Assembly (NCBI GenBank): GCA_963977015.1
Contig: CAXBMO010000017.1
Coordinates: 80,719-144,718, forward strand
From: an uncultured bacterium
GTDB taxonomy: Bacteria > Verrucomicrobiota > Verrucomicrobiia > Verrucomicrobiales > DEV007
Length of the DNA stretch: 64,000 bases
Direction: 5' to 3'
Under the pieces are notes generated by a model. It worked only from the letters and a program-made list of their open reading frames with translations. It did no database searches and was not told the DNA's origin. Below are positions 37,302 to 64,000 of the stretch, piece by piece. Within the stretch, counting starts at the first letter, position 1, and each line of letters begins with the position of its first letter. The translations under genes and the position numbers were made by a program.

Positions 37302-37333
37302 AGAAGCCGACGGAGTCCGTCGGCTTCTTTTTT
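37302..37333 (+). terminator. Intrinsic terminator
   Basis: AGAAGCCGACGGA-g-TCCGTCGGCTTCT followed by a T run, downstream of the lipoprotein gene. Confidence 0.88.
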
Positions 37334-37421
37334 GGGGAGAATTTCACAAAGTATTCGCGACGGCGTCATTGAAATCAACGTTGATGCGTCCCAGTATCGT
37401 AAGCCTTATCTCCCCCTGACT

Positions 37422-42233: not shown

Positions 42234-42323
42234 ATCCGGAAAATCCTGACCCTGATCTTCGTGTAGCATCAGGATTTCCCTTAGCGCGCCGTTCTCGGCG
42301 ACAGGGAAAGTTTTTAAAAAATG

Positions 42324-42357
42324 AAACAACCTCCCCGTAGAGGTTGTTTTCTTTTTT
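42324..42357 (+). terminator. Intrinsic terminator after gdhB
   Basis: AAACAACCTC (42324-42333) / GAGGTTGTTT (42340-42349) followed by TCTTTTTT. A second imperfect stem lies at ~42239-42279. Confidence 0.7.
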
Positions 42358-42506
42358 GAAAATGCATTGACTTCCTTGGCACTGGTCCACTACAAGGCAC
42401 CTTGATAGGCAAGCGAGGAAAGCGAGCCAACATTCCAACCAACTATTTAGACAGGCTCATCCAACTCTTCGGAGATTTTGTGGCGGGGGAGATGACCTGG
42501 GGCGCA

Positions 42507-45170
42507 ATGCAACAACTCAACAGGTCTACTCTTGGCATTCCAGTCTACGTTTCCGCAGGCATTTTGCTGCTGCTGGCTGGACTCAATGCTCAGGAGGCAA
42601 CGAAACCGCCCGCAGAAGCGTCAGCGGCCACGGAGACCGCGGTTCCCCTCCCCTCCAAACACGAAAAACGGAATGTCGAGATGAGCCTGTTTCCCAAACC
42701 GGGAACCAAGCGGGGAATCATCACGGTCTACACACCGGACGAAGGTGTCGGAGAAGCCGCTCCAGACGACGAAGGCGAAGAGCGTAAGTCACTTCTGGCA
42801 GAAGAATGGCGACCGGAACACCTGTCCACGCCATCCAACATCGATTACCAACTTCCCGGATTGGATCAAATTGGGCTGGTTGCCGAATCCCCAACCATCA
42901 ACATCGACACGATCAAGTTTGAGGGAAACACGGTCTTCACCGACTCCGAAATTGAGGAGGCCATTCGTGAAGCGATTGGCGATTATCGCGAACATCCCCT
43001 GAGCAGTGAAGACATTGAGGCTGCCCGCATTGCCACGACCAAACTGTATATCGCGGAAGGTTACGTGAACTCCGGAGCTTTGGTTCCCGATCAGGACCTT
43101 CAGGACGGCAGCCTGACCCTGAAAATCGTGGAAGGTAAATTGAGCGATGTCCGAGTGATTCGTCGCCCCCGGGAATCTGAGATCAAGAAACTGACTTTTT
43201 CAGGAAACGTCGCGATCCCAGATGAGGATCTGGAAGTGGTCGCCTTGGAGGTGCTGCAAGGAAAGACCATTCCGCTATCACCTAACGACACCGCCATCCT
43301 CCTGAGAAAACTCAGCGAAGTTTACTTTGCGCAAGGATTCCGAGATTCGGGAGCCCTGATTCCCAAACGTTCCTGGCTGGGCTCCGCCTTGGCAGTTCAG
43401 ATCATCGAGGGCGAATCGGTCGAAACACCGGTCGAGTCCGAAACGGAGACGGACGAAAACGAGACGACCGGCGGTAACCGAGGCATCACGGTGGTGGAGA
43501 CTGACGCCACCTTGCCCGCTGCGGCATCCGAGGAACCTGAGGAGGTCGAAGTTGAAGTCATCACGCCTCCGAGCTCCAAATTCGCATTCGAAGGCAACGA
43601 GGCCTACTCGGATGAGGAGCTCAAACTTGCCGTGGCTGAAAAAGTTGAATTGATCGTGGAGTCTGAGATTCGGTCCTACACGGCGGAGGAAATTCTTTCC
43701 GCGCAGGAAGCCATCAACGGTTTCTATGCTTCCGAAGGATACGTTCATTCAGGCGCCCTCCTCCCCACCTTCAACGAGGATGAAGAGACGGTGACGTTTC
43801 GGATTGTGGAAGGCGAACAGAAGCCGGCCAAAGAGCACAAATGGATGCGAGACCGTTTTTACAGCAAGCGCCTCAAATCCGTTTCCGACGGCACCTTCAA
43901 CATGACCAAGGTGCAACGCCGATTGGAATTGCTGACCCTTTCGCCCCACGTCAGCCGCATCAACGCAGAAGTCAAACCAACGGCCGAGCAGGGAGATGCG
44001 TATCTGCAACTCACGGTGAAGGAGAATTTTCCGATCCAGGGAGGCATCGATTTTCACAACCATCGCCCCGTCAGCGTCGGCTCGGAACAGATCGAAGCCT
44101 GGATCCTTCATCAAAGCCTTCTGGGATTCGGAGACCGGCTCTACCTGACCTACGGCCTCCTCAACGGCGGGCTGGATGAAGCCGACTATGCAGGTTTCGA
44201 CAACTACGGAGTCGAATACCGCGTCCCCGTTACCGGTCGGGATACGACGATTTTTGCCTCGTATCGACAAAGCAGCTACACCGTCATTCAGGAACCCTTC
44301 AACGAGTTGGACATCGGCGGGAGCAGTTCGACCTGGCACCTCGGAATCGAACAACCCTTGTTCCGCTCGCCGCGCAATGAACTGATCGCCTCAGCCCAAT
44401 TCGACCGCATTCACAGCGAAACGCTCGTGCTCGGGATTCCGTTCAGCGTCACGCCCGGAGCGATTGACGGCGAAATCGACATTTCCATGTTCCGCGCCTC
44501 GCTCGACTGGGTGACGCGCAGTCGCAATCAGGTCCTGGCCCTGAGAATGTCGGGTTCCATGGGCGTGGACTGGTTTGGGTTGGAAACGACAGACGATGGC
44601 ACAGACTTGGACAATGACTTCGTGATCGGCCAACTCCAGGGACAGTATATCCGTCGTCTCAGCGGATCCGCCCCCAAACCGAGCGAAGCCGATGACGCGA
44701 TGGATCAGAACGAGAAGGACCGAAAGGCCTTGCTGGGCAAACTCTGGGAGCGCGATTTCCAGCTTCTGTTGAAAGGTGGCCTCCAGGTTACGGATACCGA
44801 ATTGCTTTCTCCGGTTCAATGGACCGTTGGCGGCGTCAATACAATCCGCGGCTATCGCGAAAACTCGATTGTCCGTGACCTGGGTTACTATGGATCGGTA
44901 GAGTTCCACATTCCCTTGATCCAGGGGCGCTCAGGCCGGGAGATCGTCCGATTGATCCCGTTCTTTGACGTTGGCGGCGCCTGGAGCGGTGGTCAGGATC
45001 TGCCGGCCGATCAGGTCGATCTCTACAGTGCAGGATTGGGGTTTCTACTATCACCGTTCGAACACAGCCAACTTGAAATGTACTGGGGGCATCCATTCAC
45101 AGATTTGGGACAACCCAATGAATCGCTTCAGGATGATGGCATTCACTTTAAGGCAAGCCTCCAATTTTGA
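42507..45170 (+). CDS. TpsB (ShlB/FhaC/HecB family) outer membrane transporter with expanded POTRA region
   Basis: Signal peptide; three FxGN..YxxxG(Y/F)xxSGAL..I(V/I)EG modules plus one more POTRA; beta-barrel with GGVNTIRGYREN loop-6 motif; terminal Phe. Start uncertain (42402, 42492 or 42507). Confidence 0.93.
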   Translation: MQQLNRSTLGIPVYVSAGILLLLAGLNAQEATKPPAEASAATETAVPLPSKHEKRNVEMSLFPKPGTKRGIITVYTPDEGVGEAAPDDEGEERKSLLAEEWRPEHLSTPSNIDYQLPGLDQIGLVAESPTINIDTIKFEGNTVFTDSEIEEAIREAIGDYREHPLSSEDIEAARIATTKLYIAEGYVNSGALVPDQDLQDGSLTLKIVEGKLSDVRVIRRPRESEIKKLTFSGNVAIPDEDLEVVALEVLQGKTIPLSPNDTAILLRKLSEVYFAQGFRDSGALIPKRSWLGSALAVQIIEGESVETPVESETETDENETTGGNRGITVVETDATLPAAASEEPEEVEVEVITPPSSKFAFEGNEAYSDEELKLAVAEKVELIVESEIRSYTAEEILSAQEAINGFYASEGYVHSGALLPTFNEDEETVTFRIVEGEQKPAKEHKWMRDRFYSKRLKSVSDGTFNMTKVQRRLELLTLSPHVSRINAEVKPTAEQGDAYLQLTVKENFPIQGGIDFHNHRPVSVGSEQIEAWILHQSLLGFGDRLYLTYGLLNGGLDEADYAGFDNYGVEYRVPVTGRDTTIFASYRQSSYTVIQEPFNELDIGGSSSTWHLGIEQPLFRSPRNELIASAQFDRIHSETLVLGIPFSVTPGAIDGEIDISMFRASLDWVTRSRNQVLALRMSGSMGVDWFGLETTDDGTDLDNDFVIGQLQGQYIRRLSGSAPKPSEADDAMDQNEKDRKALLGKLWERDFQLLLKGGLQVTDTELLSPVQWTVGGVNTIRGYRENSIVRDLGYYGSVEFHIPLIQGRSGREIVRLIPFFDVGGAWSGGQDLPADQVDLYSAGLGFLLSPFEHSQLEMYWGHPFTDLGQPNESLQDDGIHFKASLQF

Positions 45171-45178
45171 CCTCCCGA

Positions 45179-47605
45179 ATGATCCGCTCCTCCACGCTAT
45201 CCATCCTGCTAAGCTGCGTCCTGCCATGGCTCCTTGGCATCACTTCTGGAGGAGCCCAATCTCCAGCACAGGCACAAACCACGCCTACCCAATATTACGA
45301 AGCAGCTACCGCCGCCTTTCAGAAGGGTAATCACAAGGAAGCAATCCAGGGATTCTACGCAGCCTCCAAAGGATTTTCCGACGCCAAGGACTTCGTCTCC
45401 CAAGCCAATGCGATGGGAAATCTCGCCATCGCGATGCATGCAACCGGGAACTATCGGTTGGCGTTCACCACTCTGGATCAGGCGCTCAATCTCGCTCGCG
45501 ATCTCAAGGATGAAGATCTCATCAGCCAACTTCGCGGGATCGCAGGCTCCATCAGTACCTTCTCCCGAAGGGCCGGCGATGCCCAACGCATGCTGGAATT
45601 CAGCATCACCCAAACCCGGAAAACCGATGATTCCGATGCTCTCGCGCTCCTCCTCCACGATTATGGCGTCATGTGGGCTGGGAGAGGCCGAACCGAAGAA
45701 GCAACCAAGGCGTTTGATGAAACCCTGGAGCTTTGTGAGAAGCAACAGCTCACCGACCTCAAGGTCAAGACGCTGGCAAATCGCGCCATGATGTATCTCA
45801 ACCTCGCCCTTGAACAATTCGATTTGATGGAGATTCGAGGGGAAGAGGACTTCTACTATACGCGTTACCTCGATGCGTATGAAACCCACCTTCAGAATTG
45901 CCTCGATTCCGTCATGACTGCTCAAAAGAGCCTGGGTTCGGTCAGTGGGACTTATGACAAGTCGATCATCGCAACCACTCTTGGCGATTGCTATCGCACG
46001 ATGTTGGAGAAGAAGGCCGCCAATTCATCGAAGAGCGCTGAAGAAGCACTGGCGATGTATCAACTGGCGATCAAGTCCGCGAAGGAAGCCGGCAACCCTC
46101 TCGCCCTCAGTTACGCCCTCGGCGCGATGGGCCGCCTCTACGAAGAGCGCCAGCGCTACCCCGAAGCCCTTGCCCTCACTCGCGAAGCTCGTCGCCTTGC
46201 CCAGGAACTCTCGACTCCTGACATTCTCTTCGAATGGTCCTGGCAATCCGGCCGCATCCTCAAAGCGGTGAACCAAATCGAGGAAGCCAAGAAAGCTTAC
46301 GAAGCAGCCAAGCAAACCCTCGACCCCATCCGCCACGACCTGGCGATAGGCTACGGCAACCGCAATCTCGGACGCTCCTTCCGCGAAGCCGTGGGGGCGT
46401 TCTATTTCGAGCTCGCGGAAATCTACCTGGACGAGTCCCGACAAACCACGGAGTCGAATCAAGAGATTCTCAAGAACGCCCGCGGAATCGTTGAGTCCCT
46501 CAAATCCGCGGAATTGGAGGACTACTTTCAAGATGACTGCGTCAACATCGCGCTCGGCAAACGCAAAGACATTGATGAAACCCTGAAAGACGATCCCAGG
46601 ACCGCCATTATCTATACCATCCCTCTCGTTCAAGGAACCGCGACACTGGTAACGATTGGCGATCGCATTCACTTTGCCCGGTCCGAAATTTCCGGACGTG
46701 ACCTTCAACGGGAAGCCCTTCGGATGCGCGACTTCATCGTTCGCCCCGAAGCATCCTACTACGACTATCAGGGCCCCGCGCAAAAACTCTACGACGCGAT
46801 CATCCGGCCGATCAAACCGCTCCTCGACAAGAATGCTATCGAAACCTTGGTTTTCGTTCCCGACGGTGCCCTCCGGACGGTCCCAATGTCCGCGCTCCAT
46901 GATGGGGAAAAGCATTTGATTGAAGACTATGCCGTCGCCATCACCCCGGGCTTGACTCTGATGGATCCCAAAGAGATTCCGACCGGCAATGCCGAGGTCT
47001 TGGTGGGGGCATTGAGCGAAGCGCGTCACGGTTTTTCGGCCCTCCCCTACGTGGAACGTGAAGTCGAAAAAATCACAACCCAATCTCAATCGGCAGCCTT
47101 TAAGGACGGCAACATTCTCCACAACGAGCGCTTTTTGAAAGGCCAGCTTCAGAACTCGGTCAAGGAAGGCACGTTCACCATCGTCCACATCGCCTCTCAT
47201 GGCGAATTCCAACGAGAGAGTGGAAACTCCTTCTTTCTAACATGGGATGGTAAGCTCACGCTCGACGAGTTGGAGGCGATGATTCGCCCCAAAGAGTTTG
47301 ATGAGAACCCCGTCGAAATGCTCTGCCTCAGCGCCTGTAAGACGGCGCTTGGCGACGACCGCGCGGCCCTCGGTTTGGCCGGCATCGCCGTGAAGTCCGG
47401 AGCTCGCAGTGCCCTGGCAACCCTCTGGGAGGTGGACGACGAAGTCACCAGCAACCTGATGGCCCAATTTTACAACGAACTGCTCCAGGGAAAGTCGCGC
47501 GTGGAAGCGCTTCGCACCGCCCAACTCGCAGTGCTCCAGTCTGAGCAACCCTACGATTTCCCCTTCTTCTGGGCACCCTTCATGATCATCGGGAACTGGT
47601 ATTAA
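45179..47605 (+). CDS. Exported TPR-CHAT domain caspase-like cysteine protease
   Basis: Signal peptide; TPR helices; AELEDYFQDDC; LVFVPDGALRTVPMSALHDG, VHIASHG (catalytic His), LSACKTA (catalytic Cys), LATLWEVDD, PFFWAPFMIIGNW. Confidence 0.94.
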   Translation: MIRSSTLSILLSCVLPWLLGITSGGAQSPAQAQTTPTQYYEAATAAFQKGNHKEAIQGFYAASKGFSDAKDFVSQANAMGNLAIAMHATGNYRLAFTTLDQALNLARDLKDEDLISQLRGIAGSISTFSRRAGDAQRMLEFSITQTRKTDDSDALALLLHDYGVMWAGRGRTEEATKAFDETLELCEKQQLTDLKVKTLANRAMMYLNLALEQFDLMEIRGEEDFYYTRYLDAYETHLQNCLDSVMTAQKSLGSVSGTYDKSIIATTLGDCYRTMLEKKAANSSKSAEEALAMYQLAIKSAKEAGNPLALSYALGAMGRLYEERQRYPEALALTREARRLAQELSTPDILFEWSWQSGRILKAVNQIEEAKKAYEAAKQTLDPIRHDLAIGYGNRNLGRSFREAVGAFYFELAEIYLDESRQTTESNQEILKNARGIVESLKSAELEDYFQDDCVNIALGKRKDIDETLKDDPRTAIIYTIPLVQGTATLVTIGDRIHFARSEISGRDLQREALRMRDFIVRPEASYYDYQGPAQKLYDAIIRPIKPLLDKNAIETLVFVPDGALRTVPMSALHDGEKHLIEDYAVAITPGLTLMDPKEIPTGNAEVLVGALSEARHGFSALPYVEREVEKITTQSQSAAFKDGNILHNERFLKGQLQNSVKEGTFTIVHIASHGEFQRESGNSFFLTWDGKLTLDELEAMIRPKEFDENPVEMLCLSACKTALGDDRAALGLAGIAVKSGARSALATLWEVDDEVTSNLMAQFYNELLQGKSRVEALRTAQLAVLQSEQPYDFPFFWAPFMIIGNWY

Positions 47606-47627
47606 CGACGAACTCACTTCGAAGAAC

Positions 47628-48359
47628 ATGAAGCATCCCGTTTCAAGACGAACCCGGTTTAAGCAACCAATACCCGCCGTAGTCGCTGCGCTCTTGCTTG
47701 GCATCCTGTGCCAACCGGCTTCCGCGCAGGAAGACACCGGGACAGGCTCAAAACTGAAGTTCAACTCCCTTCCCAAGCCCTCCGGCTTCTTCCCGGAGGT
47801 GAAAGGTGCTCGCCGTGCGGGCCCGGAAGACAAAGATGCGATGAAGCTTCGGACGCTATCGCCCAAAAATGGAGCTCCCGCCACGATCTCAACCCGTCCC
47901 CGCCTCTTCTGGTACCAGTCGAAACCTTCCGACGGAAACCTTGTGGTTGTACTTCGCGATCGCAACACCCGAAGAATCGACCCTTCCATCCTGGTCCGCG
48001 ACGCTCTTTCCGCAGGCACCCAGGCTCTTGATCTTCCCTCGGAAATCGAGTTGAAACCGGGAGAAATTTACATCTGGACCATCACCTACAAACCCAGCCC
48101 CAACATCCTCGAAGACGTTGTGGCAAGAGGGGAAATCTTTGTGATGAACGAAGCTGGCAAACTGCGGGCCGAAGCTGAAAAGCTCGAGGCTGGCGAACCC
48201 CGTATTCTCTTCTACGCCTCCAACGGTGCCTGGTACGACGTCCTCCGCGAAATCCAGGATCTTCGTCAGAAAAATTCAGAAATCAGCGAGGAGCTCCAAT
48301 CCCTTTGGGAAGAAGTCCTCAAGCAGGGCGGGATCTCTGGAGAAGATACCGAACCGTAA
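47628..48359 (+). CDS. DUF928 family exported protein
   Basis: Signal peptide ending ASA|QE; TISTRPRLFWY, ELKPGEIYIW and YASNGAWYDVL motifs typical of DUF928; adjacent to a CHAT gene. Confidence 0.8.
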   Translation: MKHPVSRRTRFKQPIPAVVAALLLGILCQPASAQEDTGTGSKLKFNSLPKPSGFFPEVKGARRAGPEDKDAMKLRTLSPKNGAPATISTRPRLFWYQSKPSDGNLVVVLRDRNTRRIDPSILVRDALSAGTQALDLPSEIELKPGEIYIWTITYKPSPNILEDVVARGEIFVMNEAGKLRAEAEKLEAGEPRILFYASNGAWYDVLREIQDLRQKNSEISEELQSLWEEVLKQGGISGEDTEP

Positions 48360-48580
48360 GTTGAAGGCCTTACGCCAACGGCTTGAGAAATGAACCCAAT
48401 GATTGCCATCAGCCACCCGGAATCCGGTGAAATGACTCGCCGAATTGCCTCGAAACTGATACATTTTCTCAAGTTTGGCGTGTATTTTTGAGACAGGTGT
48501 TCGTTTCCCTAAGGAGGAATTTGGGCGGCGAAGGAAACCTTCTGCGTTTCACGGCAACAATTCCCCCTCCCCTAACTTAT

Positions 48581-51500
48581 ATGATGACCTTAAGACTTCC
48601 GGCCTGTTTGCTCGCTCTGATCAGCATTTCGGTCACGGGGGCGCTGGCCCAGAATATCCAGTTCGACGGCTCGTTGGGAGCCGATGGGTCGAACGGAAAA
48701 AACGGGGCGTCCTTGGACGGCCCGAGCTACCAGATCGACAAGCTCGACGGGCAACTGGAAGGCACCAACCTGTTTCACAGCTTTGAAAAATTCGGCCTCA
48801 TCAGCGGAGAGACCGCAACCTTTGAATCAACGGGGGTTAGCAACATTCTCACACGTGTAACAGGAGGTGACGCGTCATCCATCGATGGCGGAATCGTGGC
48901 GGGCGCGAATCTGTTCTTTATGAACCCAAACGGGGTGATGTTTGGACCAAATTCCAGTCTCAATGTCTCTGGAGCGTTCACCGCGACAACCGCCGACCGC
49001 CTCAACTTTCAAGGTGGAGGAACCTTTGCCGCCACCGCCAGTGCCCTCCCCGCCACCGTCACGGGTGATGTCACTTCGTTTGGGTTTCTCGGGCCAGATT
49101 CACTGATTACCCTCGACGGCGTCAATTGGGGAGCAGCCAGCGCAGATTCCGTTCACCTGCTAGGTGGCTCCCTCGAAATCACCGACAGCGCCATCGCCCC
49201 CAACTCAGGCCGTGTGAATCTCGTTGCCGCGCCATCCGGGGCCACCGCAACCCTGGCTCCGCTCGATCACGCTTCCATCCCGGTGATCGACCTCGCCATT
49301 CCAGAATCGGCTTCCATCACCTTGAACGGAGCGACCGGCTCGCAGGTATCCTCTCAATCCGGGGGCAAAATCGTGATTCGCGGTGGAAAACTGACGGTCG
49401 AAGGCGGCAGCTCCATTTCCTCCACCGATTTTGCGACCGGTTGGGGCGGTGACATCGACATCCACGTCAGCGGTTCGGCCATCGTCAACGGCGCCATCAC
49501 CTCAACCGCGAATTCCGGAAACGGCGGAGGAAAGATCGACATCAAGACCAATGGAGGAGTTAGCGTCACCGGAGGCCGCATCGCCTCAACGACCGGTCCC
49601 GGGAGCACCGGGCCGGGAGGTGCGATCAACCTCAACGCGGGAGGCGACATCGCATTGCGCGCCGATGGCGCCGCTCCTGCGGTCCTGGAAACCGCGACCT
49701 CATCGGCGACCCAACCCGCAGGGCCCATCTCTGTTTTCGCTGGCGGGAATCTGGCAGTGATGGGAGCAACCGTTTCCTCCACCTCAAGTGCCGGAACCAG
49801 CGCGGACATCACCTTGAATGCACTGGGCAACCTCGAAATGGGATCCGTTCCGGCCGCCTCGGGAACCGCCGTGGTTCCAGCCAACATTTTTTCCCGCAGT
49901 GGAGGCCTTGGCGATGGCGGCGCGATCACCCTCACCGGCAATCACATCGCGCTCCGTTCCGGCAGTCACCTTGCCGCGACGGGCCCAACCGGCGGCCGGA
50001 TCAGCCTGTCGGCGGCGAATGGCGCCCGAATCTCGCAAGGCGCGCTACTTGATTCCGGCGGCCAAACCGGAGGGGCCATTTCGGTAAATGGCGGTAGCGG
50101 TGACGTCCACGTCGCCGGGAACCTTCGCAGCGTGGGAAGCGATGGAAACGGCGGAGATATCCGAATTCAAACCTCCGCCAACCTGGAACTCGCCCCCACC
50201 GCTCGCCTCGATGCCAGTGGCACTCTGGCCGGCGGCCAGGTTTTCGTGGGTGGTGGCCGCAAAGGAAGCGATCCAAACCTCATCAATGCCCGAAACGTCA
50301 CCGTAGCTCCGGGGGCGCTGATCACGGCGAACGGGGCTTCCGGAGATGGAGGAACCGTGATTCTTTGGGCGGATGGAGCGATGGATTTTCAGGGTTCGGT
50401 CGTGAACACCGGGTTCACCGCTGGTGGGTTTGCCGAGGTCTCCGGGCTGGAAAGCCTTAACTTCGCGGGGCATGTCGATACCGGTGGCGGGGAATTGCTC
50501 CTTGATCCCTACAATTACACCATTGGCGAAACGGAAGCGACGAACATCGAAAATGCCCTGGCACTCAACGATGTCACCATCGAAACCAGCGCGAACATAG
50601 CTAGTTACGGTTCATCGGGAAGTGACTTGGGCGATGGATCCATCATCGTGTTGGCCCCCATATCCTACATTTCCCAACGCATCTTGGGGTTTAATGCAGC
50701 AAAGGACATCACTTTTTCCGCCAACATAGAAAGTCGCGGGGGACTTAACATTGAGGCAGGTGGAAAGGTCTCGGTCGAAACAAACGTTTCTCTCTCAACT
50801 GCGAGAGAGGGAGCCCCAGCCGATTTCGACGTCGCTCCTATCACCATACAGGCTAATGAAGTAGAGGTTGCGGAAGGGGGAATCATCGACCTTACCGCTG
50901 GCGGGGCTTTCGATGGCGACGCTTTCGGTGATGGTAGAACGGGCAATGCCGGCGACTTGCTGATCGAAACATCCAAGCTTACTTTGAACGGTAGCATCTT
51001 CACTCGCACCAATACTCTGGGTGGCGCTGGCAACGTTACGGTAAACTTGCTTGAGGGAACGACGGGAATAACGCCTTCGGCCACGATTTCAAGCACAGGC
51101 CTCATTGATACCAAAACGCGGGCTTTCTCCACGGGTGACGCCGGTGATATCAGTATTCTTGGCGGCCGCGGGAATGTCACTCTACGAGGAAACGTCGAGT
51201 TGAACTCCTTAAGCAGCGGAGCGGGTGGCGATCTAGTCGTCAACGTCGATTCGTTCCACCTGGATGGAAGCAGAGTCAGAACCAGTTCGACCAGCCTTTC
51301 CCAAGATGGTGCTCCCGCTGGCAATGTGGACATCACCGCGAAAACTGTCACTATCGACAATGGCGGCGGAATTTCCACCCAGGTCACAAGCGGCGCCGCG
51401 GGCGACATCCTTCTCCAAACTAACAACCTTACGATCGACAACGGTGAGATACTCTCTACTACCCTGAATTATGTCAGCCAAGCAGAGGCCGGTGATATAT

Positions 51501-56425: not shown

Positions 56426-56516
56426 TCAACGCTTCCGCATAAAGTTTCCGATGCATGTAGCAATCCGACCCAAGGGAGACAATGAATCGCAACTACCATC
56501 GGCCGTGTTCCAACCT

Positions 56517-59500
56517 ATGAACCTGAAACTTTACCCTCTGACCATCATCCTCGTAGTTCTCTTTTTGGGTGGAGACCTCACCTTCGCTCAAACCATCAAG
56601 TTTGATGGCTCCCTGGGAGACGTTGGATCCAATGGAAAAAACGGCGCTACATTGGCCGGTCCAAACTACCAAATAGAACAAGCGGACGGTCAGCTGGTAG
56701 GCACCAATTTGTTTCAAAGCTTCGAGTCATTCGGGCTCGCAACCGGCGAGGCCGCCGACTTCAATGGATCCAACGGGATTCTCAACATTCTCGCCCGGGT
56801 TACCGGTGGAACTCGATCCGACATCGACGGGACGCTTCGATCAAACATCCCCAACGCGAATCTCTTCGTTGTGAATCCTGCGGGCATCTTCTTTGGTCCA
56901 AATGCCAGTCTCGACGTTACCGGTGCATTCACCGCGACCACGGCGAACCAGATCAACCTTTCCGATTCCGAGACGTTTGAAGCTGTTGTTGGCGATCTAA
57001 CGCTGAGCAGTGCCCCGGTTGCCTCTTTCGGATTTACCCAAGCAACGCCGTCCTCCATTCAGGTAAACGGCACTTCTCTGGAATTAGGGAGCAATCAAAC
57101 ATTGTCGCTTATCGGAGGTGCCGTGGAGCTAACATCAACTTCATTCATCTCGACGAAAGGAGGCGCTATCAACATCATCGCTGGTGGGTCTCCGGGAACC
57201 GCGATCGTAGACGTCACCAACCCGCTTTCACCAGTTGATTCCTCCGGATTCGCAGCAATGGGCCCTATCACGATCGACTCCTCGACCATCGACTCGAACG
57301 ATTCGCCTCTGACAGCAACCTCCGGCCGCATCGTCATTCAAGGAGGCGAATTGACCATGCCTCACGGGAGGATCTTTTCAGAGACGGTTTCCGGCGACGG
57401 CGGCGGCATCGAAATTGCCGTTGGCGGGACGATGAATCTGACCAGCGGAGCCCAGATTATCGGCGGAACGAGAGGCTCAGGCACAGGGGGGGCGATCACA
57501 ATCGACGCCGGCGATTTGATCGTCAAAGGCGAGGGCGTTGCATCCAGCGAGATCGTCAACCGAACCCAGGGAACCGGATCTGGAGGAGCGGTGACCATTC
57601 GAGCGGAGAGTGTAAGCCTTTCGGGGACTCCTGGATTCAGCTCGGGACGAATCGTCGCAGATACTACGTTTGGAGGAGGAAACGCGGGCTCAATCACCAT
57701 TGAAGCCACCACACTCAACGCATTCAACAGCGGCTTTGTTTTGTCTGATTCCAAGGGAACCGGGAATGCGGGAAACATTGTGCTCAATGTTGCAAACGTG
57801 AACCTTTCCAATGGTGGAGTTGTGAGTACCACCGCATTCAATGAAGGGGACGCCGGCTCGATCACGCTCAACAGCAAGAACGTCTCGCTGGTCAATGGCG
57901 GCGTCATCTTTAGTGAGTCGATTCCAAGCGCGACCACCAATCCGGGTGGTGATGCTGGCAATATATCCATTCATGCGACGGGCAGTATGGAAGTGAAAGG
58001 CTTACGGTCCCTGATCGGAACAGGAACTTCGGTAGCCAACGGAGGCCTGGGAGGAAGCCTCTCCATCCAAGCCGGAAGCCTCCTTGTAACCGACGGTGCA
58101 AAAATATCCGCGGAAACCACGAACCCCAGCGACGCCGGCACTGTTAGCGTTAAGGTCGACTCGCTTTCGGTAACCAATTCGGCGGAAATCACCACCGCAA
58201 CCGGTGGAGCCGGAAGCGCAGGTAGTGTCACCATCGAATCCAAAACGTTGAATCTCGACTCGACCGGCCGAATCACGTCGAACACCCAGGTCGTCAATAC
58301 CGCTGGCACAACGTTAAATGGGGCAGGAAACGCGGGAACGGTAACCGTTGGCGCTGACAACGCGACCGTTTCCGGCCTCATCACCTCGAGCACGAGTGGT
58401 GCCGGAGCCGCTGGTGACGTCAACTTCTCCGCCAAACGCTTGAACCTTGCCGGCGGGCGGATCAGTTCCGAAGCGTTGGCCGGATCAACCGGGAATGCCG
58501 GTAAGGTAAACCTGGATGTTGGTGTCATTGACCTTTCGGGAGGTGGCACCATCACGTCCCAGACTTCCGGTGCAGGCGATGCCGGTTCTCTAGAGTTTGA
58601 CGTCGGAACCCTGACCCTTGAGAAGGGCGGCGTTACGACCGAGACTTTTGGCAGTGGCAATGCAGGAAGCATCACGATTCGGGGAGATACCCTGAACCTG
58701 ACCGGAACGGCCAAACTCACTTCCAGCACATCAGCCAGCGGAAGAGCCGGTAGCATCCTCATCGACCTTATCAACTTGTCCGTTCTTGAAGACGCGTTGA
58801 TCACCACGGAAACCAGTGGAAGTGGTGATGCAGGCAGCATCGTCATGAACCTGACGCAACTTGATGTGCTCAACGGAGGACGAATTTCTTCCCAATCCAG
58901 TAGTTCCGGTGAAGCCGGACTCATCTCCCTCAACGCGGTGAAGGCGAATCTCGCGGATGGAACCATCACCACCCAAACCAGCGGAAAGGGAAATGCGGGA
59001 AGCGTCACGGTGCAGGCTAGAAACCTTGCCGTCGCCCATGGCGGAACCATTTCATCGGGAACCAGTTCGAGCGGGCGTGGGGGCCAGATCGACGTCTCGG
59101 CGCTACACCTCAACGTCAAAGGCGGCACCATCACCACGGAAACAAGCGGGACGGGAGATGCTGGAGAAGTTTCCGTCTCGGCAAGCAAGAGCATCGTCGT
59201 ACGTCAGGATGGAACGATCGACTCGCTCAGCGAATCCACTGGTGACGCCGGAAGTGTCGTGGTCGGCGCGGAATTCTTGCGGGTTTCCACTCGCGGCAAG
59301 ATCAGCACCGAGGCTCGAGGTTTGGGCAACGCCGGCAGCATTGAGGTTACCGCAGATGAACTAACCGTGGAGTTAGCCGGCGGCATCACGGCGACAACCT
59401 TGCAAAGTGGTCGCGGAGGCAGCATTTCCGTCGATGCCGTTGATATCGAAGTTAAAACTGATGGAAAGATTGAAGCACGCACCACGGGCTTGGGACGAGC

Positions 59501-60383
59501 CGGAGACATCTCGATTGATGCAACCAATCTGGCGATCAAATATGGCGGTGAAGTTACCGCTGCCAGTTCGGGAACCGGAAGGGGTGGAGACATTGGGATC
59601 ACAGCAAAAGACGTCCTCATCAAGGACAGCGACTCAGGCATCTTTGCCGAATCCAGCGCCGATGGTGATGGCGGCGAGATCCGGCTCCACGTAACCGGCG
59701 AAAACACGCTGAGAATGCAAAACGGTGCACAGATCAGCTCTCGAGCTACCGGCCTTGGCGAAGCAGGGAAGATCGATATCGATTCCGCAGGACTCATCAC
59801 ACTCACGGGCGACAGCATCATTTCTGTTGAATCTTTGCGAACCAACGCGGGCGACATTGTCATCGATTCGGGGAGCAGTGTCCTCCTCACCGATAGCTCG
59901 ATCACCGCGCGCGCAGAAATCGATGGAGGGAACATCGCGGTTAGTGCTCCGGATTTCATTTGGTTAACCAAAAGCGACATCATTGCTGAAGCGGGCAACG
60001 ATGGAGGCAACGTCTTCATTCGCGACGCGAGGTTCGTTCTTCTTGATGATAGTCGCATTTCCGGAAATGCCGTTTTTGGGGATGGCGGGTTCATTCAAGT
60101 CAACTCTGAGGTGCTGTTTCAAAACAACAGCGAGATCACCGCTTCGTCTGAATTCGGCGCCGATGGCGAAGTTCGAATCGATGCCCTCAGCGACCTCAGC
60201 GCAGCTCAAGCAACCCTCGACGCCGCCTTGCTGGATTCCAGCAACAACCTTCAGGAGCGCTGCACCATCAAACTTCCCGGCCAGCGCAACAGCTTCATCC
60301 TCGTCGGTCGCGGTGGACTTCCCGTCATGCCCGGACGCTTTTTACCGGGACTCCAGCTTTTGATGCTTAAGCAATCGGAGTGA
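56517..60383 (+). CDS. TpsA exoprotein 2
   Basis: Signal peptide; NLFQSFESF..RVTGG..NPAGIFFG; same repeat type and C-terminal motif. Probable ATG at 56517. Confidence 0.93.
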   Translation: MNLKLYPLTIILVVLFLGGDLTFAQTIKFDGSLGDVGSNGKNGATLAGPNYQIEQADGQLVGTNLFQSFESFGLATGEAADFNGSNGILNILARVTGGTRSDIDGTLRSNIPNANLFVVNPAGIFFGPNASLDVTGAFTATTANQINLSDSETFEAVVGDLTLSSAPVASFGFTQATPSSIQVNGTSLELGSNQTLSLIGGAVELTSTSFISTKGGAINIIAGGSPGTAIVDVTNPLSPVDSSGFAAMGPITIDSSTIDSNDSPLTATSGRIVIQGGELTMPHGRIFSETVSGDGGGIEIAVGGTMNLTSGAQIIGGTRGSGTGGAITIDAGDLIVKGEGVASSEIVNRTQGTGSGGAVTIRAESVSLSGTPGFSSGRIVADTTFGGGNAGSITIEATTLNAFNSGFVLSDSKGTGNAGNIVLNVANVNLSNGGVVSTTAFNEGDAGSITLNSKNVSLVNGGVIFSESIPSATTNPGGDAGNISIHATGSMEVKGLRSLIGTGTSVANGGLGGSLSIQAGSLLVTDGAKISAETTNPSDAGTVSVKVDSLSVTNSAEITTATGGAGSAGSVTIESKTLNLDSTGRITSNTQVVNTAGTTLNGAGNAGTVTVGADNATVSGLITSSTSGAGAAGDVNFSAKRLNLAGGRISSEALAGSTGNAGKVNLDVGVIDLSGGGTITSQTSGAGDAGSLEFDVGTLTLEKGGVTTETFGSGNAGSITIRGDTLNLTGTAKLTSSTSASGRAGSILIDLINLSVLEDALITTETSGSGDAGSIVMNLTQLDVLNGGRISSQSSSSGEAGLISLNAVKANLADGTITTQTSGKGNAGSVTVQARNLAVAHGGTISSGTSSSGRGGQIDVSALHLNVKGGTITTETSGTGDAGEVSVSASKSIVVRQDGTIDSLSESTGDAGSVVVGAEFLRVSTRGKISTEARGLGNAGSIEVTADELTVELAGGITATTLQSGRGGSISVDAVDIEVKTDGKIEARTTGLGRAGDISIDATNLAIKYGGEVTAASSGTGRGGDIGITAKDVLIKDSDSGIFAESSADGDGGEIRLHVTGENTLRMQNGAQISSRATGLGEAGKIDIDSAGLITLTGDSIISVESLRTNAGDIVIDSGSSVLLTDSSITARAEIDGGNIAVSAPDFIWLTKSDIIAEAGNDGGNVFIRDARFVLLDDSRISGNAVFGDGGFIQVNSEVLFQNNSEITASSEFGADGEVRIDALSDLSAAQATLDAALLDSSNNLQERCTIKLPGQRNSFILVGRGGLPVMPGRFLPGLQLLMLKQSE

Positions 60384-60468
60384 ACTCATCTCGTCCGGAA
60401 GCGTTTCCAAATTCAACTTTTCATTCCCACCGAATCCTGTCATTACAAAGATTGGTTTTCCCGGTTTC

Positions 60469-63400
60469 ATGATTCTTGAAAAGTTCATTCCCAATAATTG
60501 GCACGGTTCAATCCTCCTCGCCGGGGCGCTCTTCGGCCTGGTGACCGCGTCAGTTACGGCCCAGAATCAGAACATCAAGTTTGATGGTTCCCTCGGCACC
60601 GCTGGATCCAACGGGAAAAATGCAGCCCTCCTGAATGGCCCGAACTACGCCATCCAAATCGAGGACGGCCAATTGGAGAGCTCCAACCTGTTTCATAGCT
60701 TCGAAGCGTTTGCCCTAACCATGGGGGAAACCGCAACCTTTGAGTCAACCGGAATCACCAACATCCTCACACGAGTCACCGGTGGAGCCGCCTCTTCGAT
60801 TGATGGCGGAATCACCGCCAATGCGAACCTCTTTTTTATGAACCCCAACGGGGTGATGTTCGGGCCGAATTCCAGCCTGAATGTCTCTGGAGCGTTCACG
60901 GTAACCACAGCAGATCGAATCAATCTCGATCCCGCCGCTGGAGGTGGCGTTTTCGCCGTTTCCAAAGCCGGGGATGCGACCTTGAGTTCTGCACCTATCG
61001 CATCGTTTGGATTCCTGACCGCGCCGTCTGGCGTACGCGGAGCCGTGAGCCTGGAAGGAGCAAACCTGTCCTCGTCTTCCTTCCACGTGATCAGCGGGGA
61101 CGTTACGTTACAGGATGACGCCCAAATCTCGAGCGTCGATGGACCGGCAAGCATCATTTCTGTCGGCCCGGGAGCCGGTACGGTTGACCTGTCTCAAATC
61201 GGTTCCGCGACGGGCCCGACTTTTGAAGGCGTCGATGCCTTGGCCGCAAAATTTGGCTCGCTCGGAAACATCACGGTAACATCGGATTCTTCGATCGAAT
61301 CGACAAACGTTTTCGCCCCGGGTGCGCCCCAAAAAATCGTCATCCGCAGTGGTCAGCTCCAAGTTCTGAACGGAGGCAGCTTGTTCGCGTTGGGAGTGGA
61401 CAGCATCCCGGAAGAAGGCAGCATCGATGTCGGAACCCAGAGCCTTGTCAATGTCGACAGCATGGGCGGAGGGTTCACCAATCTCGCTGCAAATGGGGAT
61501 TTAAAAATCAAGACGAGCAGCCTCCGTGTTGCCAATGGGGGCTCCGTCGCCACCAACGCCTTTCGAATTTCTCTGGCCGGAATCACAACTCTCACCGAAG
61601 GCGGAAACATCTCCATTCAAGCTGATGATATCGACGTTTCAGGTGGATTTGTTGAGGCTGTGACGCGTTTCAGCACCGATGCCGGGAGTATTTCCATTCA
61701 GTCGGACAACTTGACGGTCCAGAACGATGGAATCATCCGGACGAGTACTTCCGATGAAGGGAACGCAGGTTCCATCGCCATTAACGCAGGCAATGTTCAT
61801 TTGGCGGCCAACGGACACATTCGATCCGACAGCGATGACAGCGGCTCAGGAGGATTGATCTCCATCGCTGCTTCAAACCTCGCCCTCCGGGAAAGCGCCA
61901 TCGCAGCCAATTCGACCGGCAGCGGAGACGGTGGAACCATTCAAATCAAGGCCGGAGCCATCGACCTGAAAGACAGCACCATTAACTCCAACGCCGCCAA
62001 TCTTGGACTTGGCGGCACGGTCACGGTTGAGGCAAAGGATCTCCAGATGACGGACAGCTTCATCGCTGCGTTCACGTTTGGTCAGAAGGATGCCGGCAAC
62101 GTCGCGGTCAAAGCTGACAATCTGCAGATCTCCGGCGGGGAAATCACAACATCGACCATCAACAGTGGTGATGCCGGAAGCATCGTGATTGAGGCGGAAA
62201 ACCTGAATGTCACCAATTCCGGCCTTATCCTTTCCAGCACGGGGGGCGCTGGAGATGCCGGCTCAATTCGTATCGACGCCGGCAGCATGATCGTCTCCGG
62301 CTCAGGATCCGTCAGTTCCGCAACCTACGCCGGAGGCAATGCTGGTAGCGTCACCGTCACCGCGGATTCTCTGGATCTCAGGGATCAGGGGGCAATTTCC
62401 ACTTCGACCGGAGGAACGGGCAATGCTGGCCGTATTGTGGTCGATGCCGATGTTCTTCGGGTTCGAAAGGGAGGGTTCATCGCCTCTGACACGCAATTTT
62501 TTGACCCGGTAATCGGCACACAGGTGGGTACGGGCTCTGCAGGAAGCGTGCAAATCCAAGCTGATTCCGCAATCATTCAAGGACAGGTCAGCACGAGCAC
62601 ATCAGGCCCGGGAAACGCGGGATTGGTTGATTTTGAAGCGGTCAATCTGACGGTAGACGCGGGCATCATCGCTTCGATAACAGCCGGGACCGGAAACGGT
62701 GGCACCATTTCCATCACGACGGATTCCCTCAACGCGATCAACGGTGGCGTCGTCAACGCAGACACCTTTTTCAGCGGGCAGGGTGGCGACATCAACGTCG
62801 TTGCCAACCAGATCAAGGTGGACGGTGCCAACAAAGCGCTCGGCATCACCAGCGGAATTGAAGCTTCTGCCTTTGGACGCGGAGACGCAGGCACCATCAC
62901 TGTCGATACCGGCGTTTTAGAGGTAACCAACGGCGCCTTTCTCCGGGTGGAAACGTTGGGCGAGGGACGCGCCGGCGACATCAACATCGACGCGACTCGA
63001 ATCCGGGTAGATGGCGTGAATCTCGACCTCGGAGTAGCCACCAACGGCCCTGCCAACGACGCCCCCAGCGTCATTTCCGTGCAGACCTTCGGCAAGGGCG
63101 AAGGGGGAAGCATCCGTATCAAAACGCGCGATCTGGAGGTCACCAACGGCTCCGTCATTACCGCCACCACTTTTACCGAGGCGGATGGTGGCGATATTAC
63201 GATCAACGCCAAATCGGTGAAGGTGGAAGGAGTGGACAAGGTGTTTCAAGACGTCAGTGCCATTGGGGCCGGGTCCATCACCACAGGTGCTGCAGGTCAA
63301 ATTCTCATTGCGACCGATACCCTGGAGGTTCTCAAGGGCGGCGTGGTTCGGGCATCCTCGGTGGACGGCCCGGCGGGAAGCATCAACGTCCGGGCTGACG

Positions 63401-64000
63401 AAATCCTGGTGGATGGAACGGATCCCAACTTTGGTTTCTCCAGCGAAATTGATGCCGATTCGTTTGGCTTGGGCGATGGGGGAAGCATCCTTTTGGAAGC
63501 GGACACCCTGACCATTACCAATGGGGGCAATGTCGGAACCAACGCCGAATCCAGTGGCAACGGAGGCGACGTCCGCGTCACGGCACGGGACATTTTCATT
63601 GATGGCGCCGGGCAGGGAACTTTCGGCATCACGGCAGAAAGCTCAGGCGCGGGTGACGCCGGTTCCATCAACCTCAACGTTACCGGAAAAAACACCCTCC
63701 GGATGCAGAACGGAGCCATTGTCAGCACCAAGGCATCCGGTCAAGGCAACGCCGGCAGCATCGACATCGACTCCGCCGGCCTCATCATCCTCAACAGCGG
63801 CAGCTCCATCAACGTGGAGTCGCTGCTTACTAACGCGGGTAGCATCACCCTCGACGGCGGCAGCGACCTCATCCTCGACAGCAGCTCGATTACCGCACGC
63901 GCCGGTCAAAACGCCGGCAATATCGAAATTCGCGTGCCCGACACGATCCGGCTCGACAACAGCGCGATCATCGCCGAGGCCGGCAGCGATGGCGGCAACA
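60469..64000 (+). CDS. TpsA exoprotein 3 (3' end beyond window)
   Basis: Not in ORF track. ATG at 60469 gives MILEKFIPNNWHGSILLAGALFGLVTASVTA|QNQNIKFDGSLG..NLFHSFEAF..RVTGG..NPNG. The last 256 bp match the TpsA1 C-proximal region in frame. Confidence 0.9.
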   Translation, partial: MILEKFIPNNWHGSILLAGALFGLVTASVTAQNQNIKFDGSLGTAGSNGKNAALLNGPNYAIQIEDGQLESSNLFHSFEAFALTMGETATFESTGITNILTRVTGGAASSIDGGITANANLFFMNPNGVMFGPNSSLNVSGAFTVTTADRINLDPAAGGGVFAVSKAGDATLSSAPIASFGFLTAPSGVRGAVSLEGANLSSSSFHVISGDVTLQDDAQISSVDGPASIISVGPGAGTVDLSQIGSATGPTFEGVDALAAKFGSLGNITVTSDSSIESTNVFAPGAPQKIVIRSGQLQVLNGGSLFALGVDSIPEEGSIDVGTQSLVNVDSMGGGFTNLAANGDLKIKTSSLRVANGGSVATNAFRISLAGITTLTEGGNISIQADDIDVSGGFVEAVTRFSTDAGSISIQSDNLTVQNDGIIRTSTSDEGNAGSIAINAGNVHLAANGHIRSDSDDSGSGGLISIAASNLALRESAIAANSTGSGDGGTIQIKAGAIDLKDSTINSNAANLGLGGTVTVEAKDLQMTDSFIAAFTFGQKDAGNVAVKADNLQISGGEITTSTINSGDAGSIVIEAENLNVTNSGLILSSTGGAGDAGSIRIDAGSMIVSGSGSVSSATYAGGNAGSVTVTADSLDLRDQGAISTSTGGTGNAGRIVVDADVLRVRKGGFIASDTQFFDPVIGTQVGTGSAGSVQIQADSAIIQGQVSTSTSGPGNAGLVDFEAVNLTVDAGIIASITAGTGNGGTISITTDSLNAINGGVVNADTFFSGQGGDINVVANQIKVDGANKALGITSGIEASAFGRGDAGTITVDTGVLEVTNGAFLRVETLGEGRAGDINIDATRIRVDGVNLDLGVATNGPANDAPSVISVQTFGKGEGGSIRIKTRDLEVTNGSVITATTFTEADGGDITINAKSVKVEGVDKVFQDVSAIGAGSITTGAAGQILIATDTLEVLKGGVVRASSVDGPAGSINVRADEILVDGTDPNFGFSSEIDADSFGLGDGGSILLEADTLTITNGGNVGTNAESSGNGGDVRVTARDIFIDGAGQGTFGITAESSGAGDAGSINLNVTGKNTLRMQNGAIVSTKASGQGNAGSIDIDSAGLIILNSGSSINVESLLTNAGSITLDGGSDLILDSSSITARAGQNAGNIEIRVPDTIRLDNSAIIAEAGSDGGN

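Follow-up and report, generated by a model that had tools for sequence, protein, structure and literature searches.

The window analysed here is a stretch of 64,000 nucleotides from an uncultured bacterium of the Verrucomicrobiales (DEV007; assembly GCA_963977015.1, contig CAXBMO010000017.1, positions 80,719 to 144,718). At its end, from 42402 to 64000, lie six co-oriented plus-strand genes that were assigned by Pfam as tpsB, a TPR-CHAT protease gene, a DUF928 gene, tpsA1, tpsA2 and tpsA3. The cluster encodes a two-partner secretion (TPS) system, with a TpsB that has POTRA domains and a ShlB barrel and with TpsA proteins that have a signal peptide and a TPS domain. We conclude that it is an unstudied yet widespread variant of type Vb secretion in which a periplasmic caspase-like protease, encoded within the operon, is matched to the C-terminal tail of the secreted cargo. 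The evidence firmly supports the tail and the exported TPR-CHAT protein as dedicated partners, and comparison of sequences across genomes supports the view that the genes form a conserved module in several phyla. The TPS gene set to which the caspase-fold protease and DUF928 belong is found repeatedly, in at least seven phyla.

No paper describing a TPS/TPR-CHAT/DUF928 module was found in our literature search, with subscription journals and supplementary files lying outside its scope. For periplasmic TPR-CHAT proteins the search returned the DdvA paper alone, and for CHAT together with CHASE2 it returned metacaspases alone. Four papers are cited below from the available portions of their text (PMC5422565, PMC11506125, PMC5587647 and PMC2853523), and none of these portions describes the module.

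A shared TpsA tail and an exported TPR-CHAT protease

The genome encodes four TpsA paralogs, the fourth of which (tpsA4) lies on the contig that continues the array. Their first 300 residues are 44–66% identical and their last 82 residues 86–99% identical. All four end in this common tail of ∼82 residues, which contains an invariant cysteine and the motif SSFxVxGRGGLPxxPG, and these are the only four tails in the genome. In TpsA1 and TpsA2 the tail follows a TPS domain and a β-helix repeat body, which is long in TpsA1; the TpsA proteins also match TIGR01901. An alignment of 47 tails, 4 from this genome and 43 from others, yields the consensus ASSxFGxxGTVxI...LPxxLL...RCAxRL...SSFxVxGRGGLPxxPGxxLPS, in which Cys43, G11 and L28 are invariant. 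The tail cysteine is the sole cysteine in mature TpsA2, TpsA3 and TpsA4, proteins of 1300–2100 residues. When a large protein collection was searched with the tail region alone, 94 of 1727 candidates matched at E ≤0.001; almost all of these have a TPS domain, and many are cyanobacterial. The first tail profile, of 135 residues, also matched β-helix repeats in TpsA bodies. Tail counts in the comparison of loci below come from that profile, while the alignment and the whole-genome counts use a cleaner profile rebuilt from the last ∼80 residues.

A long form of the tail, found mainly in Nitrospirota-type loci, carries a second cysteine 2–3 residues from the C-terminus, which recalls the two-cysteine 'hook' of the CdrA tail. 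This suggests that an internal disulfide loop replaces the single free cysteine of the short form. The long-form loci (L040, L044, L048, L049, L054, L056, L061, L067, L071, L074 and L077) mostly lack CHASE2.

The TPR-CHAT protein of the window has 808 residues, comprising a signal peptide (MIRSS...AQA, followed by Q), ∼9 TPR pairs and a CHAT domain. Its catalytic residues, H674 (codon 47198–47200) and C720 (codon 47336–47338), lie in the motifs HIASHG and LSAC and are invariant in all 35 aligned orthologs; the initial annotation had read the dyad as intact. The protein thus has the CHAT domain with conserved histidine and cysteine that defines a CHAT peptidase. A further cysteine, C454, is also invariant in 35/35 orthologs, and 30 of the 35 have a signal-peptide-like N-terminus. 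A database search with CHAT returned 3069 matches at E ≤0.001 among 8000 candidates scored.

The distribution of the tail follows that of the protease. In a sample of 201 genomes from the window's own phylum, a CHAT ortholog (E ≤1e-50) is present in three, and the tail occurs in the same three only; the two weaker of these tail matches have E values of 2e-8 and 1.5e-6, and DUF928 is present in two of the three CHAT-bearing genomes. In a second sample of 151 genomes, centred on the Nitrospirota, the phylum of the Nitrospira carrier, CHAT is present in 14 and the tail again in the same 14 only. DUF928 occurs there in 15 genomes, 13 of which have CHAT, and adjoins the CHAT gene in all 13. With both samples joined (352 genomes), the tail is found in exactly the 17 CHAT-bearing genomes. 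Thus, the co-occurrence that the initial annotation had called for is present in both samples and in neighbourhoods from many phyla. A genome with four CHAT copies has a tail within a few kb of each copy, and in the window's genome a tailed TpsA adjoins the TPR-CHAT ortholog. On contig C1 of another genome in the own-phylum sample (G070, with a genome size of ∼2 Mb), DUF928, the CHAT ortholog and the tailed TpsA lie at 212858, 345999 and 1370738. Because these genes are hundreds of kb apart, the co-occurrence of tail and CHAT is independent of adjacency.

Tail and protease are also found within one polypeptide, since 3 of the 94 tail matches carry TPR and CHAT domains in addition. The most complete of these, P0090 (1740 aa), consists of a TPS domain (8–318), a β-helix, a tail (815–928) that includes ...C...FVITGRGGLPSNPG, and a TPR-CHAT part (1013–1740). 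That last part matches the protease at E 1e-201 over profile positions 30–768 and represents a complete mature ortholog. The other two, P0046 and P0056, share this architecture but are incomplete at the N-terminus.

To compare neighbourhoods, we used an alignment search for CHAT orthologs in a species-genome collection, in which 583 of 599 candidate stretches encode a relative. Counts refer to the best 80 of these 583 relatives, whose open reading frames (ORFs) were scanned with profiles built for this analysis; 35 of the 80 loci have at least 8 kb of flank on both sides. The 80 loci span Verrucomicrobiota, Nitrospirota, Desulfobacterota, Planctomycetota, Myxococcota, Chloroflexota, Pseudomonadota and others. 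DUF928 is present in 56/80 loci (31/35 of those well flanked), TpsB in 51/80 (26/35), a tailed TpsA in 47/80 (29/35) and a TPS domain in 46/80 (28/35). CHASE2 of any kind occurs in 54/80, and a CHASE2-cyclase in 23 of the 35 well-flanked loci. Eight of the 80 loci, and three of the 35, have none of these partners.

Could the genes simply stand side by side through co-regulation or island structure, without direct interplay? A defence island is hinted at just downstream of the array by an nSTAND1-TPR NTPase gene and a gene for a caspase-DUF4384 protein that matches a PADLOC model. We regard this explanation as very improbable. Tail and CHAT co-occur perfectly even where they are dispersed (G070), fusion proteins join the two, and the complex prediction described below passes its controls. 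Additionally, PADLOC has no model that matches TpsB, DUF928 or TpsA, and CHAT receives a weak TPR match only.

Predicted docking of the tail and the proposed role of the protease

To examine the pair structurally, we ran a complex prediction for the mature TPR-CHAT protein (residues 30–808) and the TpsA2 tail (82 residues), with alignments of 35 and 47 rows, respectively. The median score over three runs was 0.78, and the highest score among three controls was 0.02. A score of 0.78 is reached by 116 of 157 solved complexes and by 2 of 215 mismatched pairs, counts that hold only roughly here because the alignments were user-supplied. The runs share at least 73% of their contacts. On the CHAT side the predicted interface comprises TPR-groove residues 37–397, with 164, 197, 200–201, 204 and 263–267 among them, plus 453–454 and 457; on the tail side it comprises residues 42–43 (Arg-Cys) and 56–79 (LVGRGGLPVMPGRFLPGLQLLMLK in TpsA2). 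In the model, the last ∼24 tail residues lie extended in the concave groove of the TPR superhelix, and the tail cysteine falls within the predicted interface. Two isolated patches of this interface suggest that tail Cys43 may sit next to Cys454 of the protease, a pair that is absent from the model's contact listing. The prediction agrees with the earlier proposal that the C-terminal peptide of TpsA engages the TPR domain.

In sequence, the TPR part of the protease is similar to TPRs that bind peptides, those of LGN/Pins, kinesin light chain and Rap/NprR, and a PDB sequence search with the CHAT profile gave TPR proteins only, among the 60 matches listed. An AlphaFold (AF2) model has a mean predicted local distance difference test (pLDDT) of 85 and a predicted template modelling score of 0.80. 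Its best structural matches are Csx29 of the type III-E CRISPR 'Craspase', the periplasmic TPR-CHAT domain of DdvA from Myxococcus xanthus, and separase.

The best match is Csx29 (8eey_B; Foldseek E 1.2e-15, template modelling scores 0.42/0.46), which shares the TPR-CHAT architecture and the His/Cys dyad and whose activity is gated by a bound partner. However, Csx29 is cytoplasmic, bound to Cas7-11 and triggered by RNA, whereas the protein described here is exported and has no Cas context. Membership in the Csx29 family was rejected, with a score of 17.7 bits for NF041237 against a cut-off of 300. Thus, the comparison drawn in the initial annotation is valid for the fold and not for the family.

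DdvA (8rw5, 8rot; E ∼2e-12) is likewise a periplasmic TPR-CHAT protein. According to the available text on DdvA, its TPR-CHAT part has a proposed role in trans-envelope signalling, is joined through a membrane helix to a zinc-binding anti-sigma domain in the cytoplasm, forms dimers and is missing three active-site helices (PMC11506125). In contrast, the window's protein is soluble after removal of the signal peptide and is tied to a TPS system rather than to a sigma factor of the ECF (extracytoplasmic function) type. A DdvA-type anti-sigma factor was therefore rejected: the sole hydrophobic segment is the signal peptide (ORF residues 11–29), and the mature protein begins with TPRs.

Taken together, we consider it somewhat probable that the tail is retained in the periplasm, that it both docks on the TPR-CHAT protein and is processed there, and that this step controls retention or release of the fibre. 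TpsB would export the four paralogous TpsA β-helix fibres, and the tail, reaching the transporter last, would remain periplasmic. There it would dock on the TPR-CHAT protease from the same operon, whose CHAT domain may cut the tail and perhaps, in addition, the DUF928 Gly/Arg linker, with DUF928 serving as a putative adaptor. Candidate cut sites are the R-G of GRGG in the tail and, in DUF928, the linker with the invariant Arg63. Whether the fibre remains attached to the cell or is set free would then depend on this cleavage. If this is correct, a large family of exported TPR-CHAT proteins would gain a defined substrate or ligand, DUF928 would gain a role, and there would be a lead on what CHASE2 receptors sense.

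The closest precedent in the literature is CdrA, a type Vb protein of Pseudomonas aeruginosa whose periplasmic C-terminal tail is cut by LapG, controlling release from the surface; TPS systems usually consist of two genes, and proteases for their maturation are usually encoded outside tps operons (PMC5422565, available text). Like CdrA/CdrB-LapG, the system proposed here would combine a TpsA fibre exported through TpsB, a periplasmic cysteine protease acting on the tail and a link to a nucleotide second messenger (PMC5422565). Unlike it, the protease has a TPR-CHAT caspase fold and is encoded inside the tps operon, the tail motif differs, and DUF928 together with CHASE2, as a cyclase or a kinase, takes the place of LapD with cyclic di-GMP. 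Because of these different partners, any signal would run outside-in and not inside-out as for CdrA. The relation is one of working alike and not of membership, the operon protease here being a CHAT protein.

A second comparison is offered by FhaB of Bordetella. FhaB is a large TpsA protein whose C-terminal part is periplasmic, controls maturation and is removed by proteases. The TPS-tail-TPR-CHAT fusions resemble such a TpsA with a large periplasmic C-terminal domain. Unlike the fused TPR-CHAT part, the FhaB prodomain is no protease; its processing enzymes are encoded elsewhere, and it has no sequence relation to the tail.

Several points weigh against tail processing in the periplasm as set out above. 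The periplasmic retention of the tail is itself assumed by analogy with CdrA and FhaB. H674 and C720 lie outside the predicted interface, so the model represents docking on the TPR domain and not a substrate in the catalytic cleft. Complexes of a peptide in a TPR groove are common among solved structures, and part of the score may reflect resemblance to them; the tail's own fold is uncertain as well, since the pLDDT of this chain is 48–50. As for the genomic evidence, three of the 35 well-flanked loci have no partner gene, and the 80 loci were taken as the top CHAT matches out of 583, not as a random sample. Genomes within a phylum sample are related and not independent. Because the profile was built from tails beside CHAT genes, divergent tails that are independent of CHAT could be missed. 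Finally, DUF928 appears to be an accessory rather than a core component because it is missing from 1/14 and 1/3 of the CHAT-bearing genomes.

The position of the interface raises the question of whether the TPR-CHAT protein cuts at all. It may instead grip the tail in the periplasm as a holdase or stopper, perhaps by way of a Cys-Cys bond, and in this way pace secretion or anchor the fibre, with the protease site unused or kept for self-processing alone. The predicted interface is indeed in the TPR groove near the invariant C454 and away from the dyad, the tail cysteine is invariant in 47/47 tails as C454 is in 35/35 orthologs, and in FhaB a periplasmic C-terminal part controls folding. We nevertheless consider this quite unlikely: the invariance of the His/Cys dyad and its surrounding motifs in 35/35 orthologs argues for retained catalysis, and the pairing of tail residue 43 with C454 is deduced rather than listed in the model.

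The fusion proteins bear on another alternative, in which TPR-CHAT itself would be among the exported cargo and act as an effector protease, either at the surface or secreted, with toxin-like fusions and the tail as a pre-toxin boundary. In the fusions TPR-CHAT does hold the C-terminal slot that effector domains occupy in CdiA-type proteins. However, the unfused protease carries a Sec signal peptide but lacks a TPS domain and should therefore escape recognition by TpsB; no immunity-like gene follows, and the C-termini are conserved rather than variable. The CHAT family is, moreover, uniform in length, the best 120 matches being ∼37–45% identical over their full length. An effector role is therefore very unlikely, and periplasmic processing of the tail remains the reading we prefer.

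DUF928, CHASE2 receptors and a possible path across the envelope

The DUF928 protein is firmly supported as a frequent periplasmic accessory of the module. The window's copy (243 aa) has a signal peptide, a flexible Gly/Arg linker, a β-sandwich and a four-helix domain, and its model (pLDDT 84) shows a seven-strand β-sandwich followed by four helices. A signal-peptide-like N-terminus is present in 79 of 82 aligned members. A word-based search gave 3 proteins; we instead used an exhaustive search, which gave 799 representatives at E ≤0.001. DUF928 clusters were confirmed in the ESM Atlas and are mostly cyanobacterial. Among eight unusual members that we scanned, two are CHASE2-cyclase-DUF928 fusions and one is a PG_binding_1-DUF928 fusion. 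A reading of DUF928 as a lipoprotein was rejected, as 'GILC' does not fit a lipobox.

The linker contains the motif (Y/F)xPPxxGAPxxRVGGGxRG, of which the final arginine (R63 here) is invariant. The motif (GAPxxRVGGGxRG), duplicated in some members, is similar to GRGGLP, the stretch that forms the Gly/Arg core of the tail motif. Because of this resemblance, DUF928 could be a second substrate of the protease or a competitor for the same site.

In structural comparisons, the β-sandwich and helical part of the DUF928 model fit the C-terminal domain of MtxA (PDB 4z29) with VIA Z 10.6 and a root-mean-square deviation of 3.9 over 150 residues (next best Z 7.0; Foldseek E 2e-4), while sequence identity is 15–17%. 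We know of no established molecular function for MtxA, so the match names a fold and not an activity. Nothing in the DUF928 model or its fold match points to catalysis.

That a CHASE2 receptor belongs to the gene set in most lineages is firmly supported. The gene usually found between CHAT and DUF928 in relatives encodes a CHASE2-adenylate/guanylate cyclase of ∼650 aa; 9 of 10 ORFs taken from this position were identified by Pfam as CHASE2-cyclases, and a full-length CHASE2-cyclase is present in 47/80 loci. In the two fusions of the form CHASE2-cyclase-transmembrane segment-DUF928, an extra membrane segment follows the cyclase, which would return DUF928 to the periplasm. Two of the cited papers touch on CHASE2 genes in their available text: a CHASE2/DUF928/WD40 neighbourhood in Nostoc is mentioned, with no further detail, in PMC5587647, and a metacaspase-CHASE2 fusion is reported in PMC2853523.

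The window is a form of the module without CHASE2 and with an expanded tpsA array. In a tree of CHAT sequences from 75 loci, the window's CHAT groups with L004, L043 and L051. The last of these, the closest relative with long flanks, has a cluster of CHAT, DUF928, a tailed tpsA and a CHASE2 histidine kinase, followed by a sigma54 response regulator. In this composition the CHASE2 sensor is kept while the output differs. In 17 of the 75 tree loci, mostly in one Nitrospirota-type clade, CHASE2 is missing despite sufficient flank, so it is dispensable for the core. The initial annotation had connected such neighbourhoods with CHASE2 and suggested reading past 64000 for the gene. The connection is seen in 54 of 80 related loci and in the fusions; here, neither the window nor its continuation on contig C27 contains a CHASE2 gene, and an nSTAND1-TPR NTPase and a caspase-DUF4384 protein were found beyond 64000 instead. 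The genome does encode two CHASE2 cyclases, both unlinked to the cluster, with E values of 1.9e-73 and 1.9e-60 against the module profile, compared with ∼1e-200 or better for cyclases within modules.

One of these two stands in a locus of its own (G000 contig C10 143588–152209, L086), where a gene for a divergent second ShlB-type transporter lies head-to-head with the CHASE2-cyclase. A gene for a 1449-aa BON/OmpA protein follows this pair, a further case in this genome of CHASE2 alongside an Omp85-type transporter.

Because DUF928 adjoins or is fused to a CHASE2 receptor in most relatives, we propose that the state of the tail may be reported to the cytoplasm. In a tentative extension, rather improbable as it stands, the module would form a trans-envelope pathway: the protease would read and cut the tail, or the DUF928 linker, and what results would, jointly with DUF928, serve as the natural ligand of CHASE2 receptors. 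To our knowledge, no physiological ligand is known for CHASE2 despite its being a widespread sensor domain. If such a pathway exists, it would be the first input pathway for CHASE2 and would supply the first substrate for periplasmic CHAT proteases.

The same evidence could be taken further, with the module acting mainly as an outside-in sensor in which the fibre reports contact or damage and processing for release is secondary. Here the CHAT cut of the tail or of the DUF928 linker would make or expose a CHASE2 ligand and so change the output of cyclic nucleotide monophosphate (cNMP) or of a phosphorelay; in this genome the signal would have to go to one of the two unlinked CHASE2 cyclases. 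We judge this unlikely, yet several observations agree with it. CHASE2 proteins occur in 54/80 related loci, 47 of them with a full CHASE2-cyclase, and the L051 cluster pairs a CHASE2 histidine kinase with a sigma54 response regulator. Additionally, the CHASE2-cyclase-DUF928 fusions bring sensor and accessory into one chain, ten loci have a glutaminase bearing a cNMP-binding domain, one of the window genome's own CHASE2 cyclases adjoins a ShlB-type transporter gene, and DdvA offers a precedent for a periplasmic TPR-CHAT protein in trans-envelope signalling (PMC11506125, available text). Set against these are the absence of a CHASE2 gene in cis, which makes the sensor explanation stronger for the full module than for the window, the scores of the unlinked cyclases far below those of in-module ones, and the 17/75 tree loci that lack CHASE2. 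The sensing or maturation circuit imagined in the initial annotation is thus upheld in part, by the conserved module, the tail-CHAT pairing and CHASE2 in relatives, and qualified by the missing cis CHASE2 gene.

In the ten loci with a glutaminase (for example L005 7844–9700, minus strand), this enzyme is a neighbour of CHAT and is fused to STAS and cNMP-binding domains. It is possible that such glutaminase and glutamate dehydrogenase neighbours tie cyclase output to glutamine/glutamate metabolism, or they may be a coincidence.

Cluster layout and continuation of the tpsA array

The layout of the cluster largely conforms to the initial annotation (Table 1). The co-oriented gene set with signal peptides is borne out by the Pfam domains and by the N-termini: in every cluster product a single hydrophobic segment, at the N-terminus and followed by an AxA-type site, is the only membrane segment, and all would for this reason be exported across the inner membrane. 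The distance from the tpsB stop to the CHAT start codon, placed earlier within ∼10 bp, measures 8 bp, and the 22 bp between the CHAT stop and DUF928 are exact. The gaps within the tpsA array are 25 bp and 85 bp, in keeping with the claimed lack of immunity ORFs between tpsA genes, and the identity of the paralog tails agrees with the claimed lack of toxin-like variable C-termini. Contact-dependent inhibition or a polymorphic toxin TpsA was rejected on the basis of the conserved C-termini, the 25 and 85 bp gaps and the absence of any Pfam toxin domain. Two statements are revised. The tpsB gene, taken to begin at 42402, more likely starts at the ATG at 42492, which is preceded by GGGGAG, and the three tpsA genes, all present in the window, belong to an array of four.

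Table 1. Positions of the cluster genes, neighbouring features and the genes that follow on contig C27.
Feature	Position	Strand	Evidence or remark
NAD-glutamate dehydrogenase gene	37332-42233	+	1633 aa; upstream of the cluster
Terminator-like hairpin	42323-42350		11-bp stem and T-run, bidirectional
tpsB	ORF 42402-45170; likely start ATG 42492	+	POTRA_2 1.2e-26, ShlB 1.1e-21, Omp85 1.3e-05
TPR-CHAT protease	ORF 45167-47605; start ATG 45179	+	CHAT (PF12770) 7.9e-62, TPR_12 1.9e-17
DUF928 (PF06051) protein	47628-48359	+	2.4e-19; 70.2 bits, cut-off 26
tpsA1	ORF 48488-56425; likely start ATG 48581	+	TPS (PF05860) 3.6e-28
Region coding the TpsA1 C-terminal tail	56168-56422	+	ITASSEFG...C...GRGGLP...
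tpsA2	56451-60383; alternative start 56517	+	TPS 1.9e-32; 1310 aa
Region coding the 82-aa TpsA2 C-terminal tail	60135-60380	+	partner chain of the complex prediction
tpsA3	60469-64000, truncated by contig end	+	TPS 3.3e-29
nSTAND1 NTPase with C-terminal TPRs, 1318 aa	L003 (G000 contig C27) 8364-12320	-	same strand as the tpsA array
Caspase (Peptidase_C14)-DUF4384, 494 aa	L003 (G000 contig C27) 6630-8114	-	matches PADLOC caspase model

The cluster is bounded upstream by the hairpin, which separates tpsB from the NAD-glutamate dehydrogenase gene. Terminator-like sites within the cluster occur at chance level (28 against 23.7), and this hairpin is the only one we used. A promoter scan gave 4 sites, fewer than the mean of 7.1 in shuffled sequence. 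An Rfam search of 42000–64000 matched no family, nor did the six largest antisense ORFs of the cluster match any family in Pfam.

TpsB has a signal peptide, a ShlB barrel and an L6-type motif, 'TIRGY'. At ∼892 aa it is unusually long, the TpsB ORFs of related loci being mostly 527–686 aa, and an insertion splits its ShlB match. Three POTRA-like units, at residues ∼160–262, 262–345 and 395–490 of the ORF with an acidic linker separating them, were assigned from two Pfam POTRA_2 stretches together with reading of the sequence. A BLAST comparison of TpsB with itself gave no significant internal repeat.

The contig ends where the window ends, at 64000. Over its final 34 nt it overlaps, save for a single mismatch, with an end of contig C27. 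The protein database assigns these proteins to a 232,416-nt contig, a length equal to 144,718 + 87,732 - 34. Because the overlap and the exact sum agree, we take the join to C27 as real. With the continuation, tpsA3 becomes complete (1297 aa) and a fourth gene is gained, tpsA4 (2139 aa; TPS 4.1e-26), downstream of which come the nSTAND1-TPR NTPase gene and then the caspase-DUF4384 gene. These two genes could either form a conflict or defence module of their own or have a connection with the cluster.

The assembly break falls in a repeat common to the tpsA1 and tpsA3 tails (window 63960–64000 and 56680–56730), and the final 40 nt of the contig recur at contig position 136723. The near-identity of the tpsA tails suggests gene conversion. 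Near-identical paralog tails of this kind will fragment short-read assemblies of such loci.

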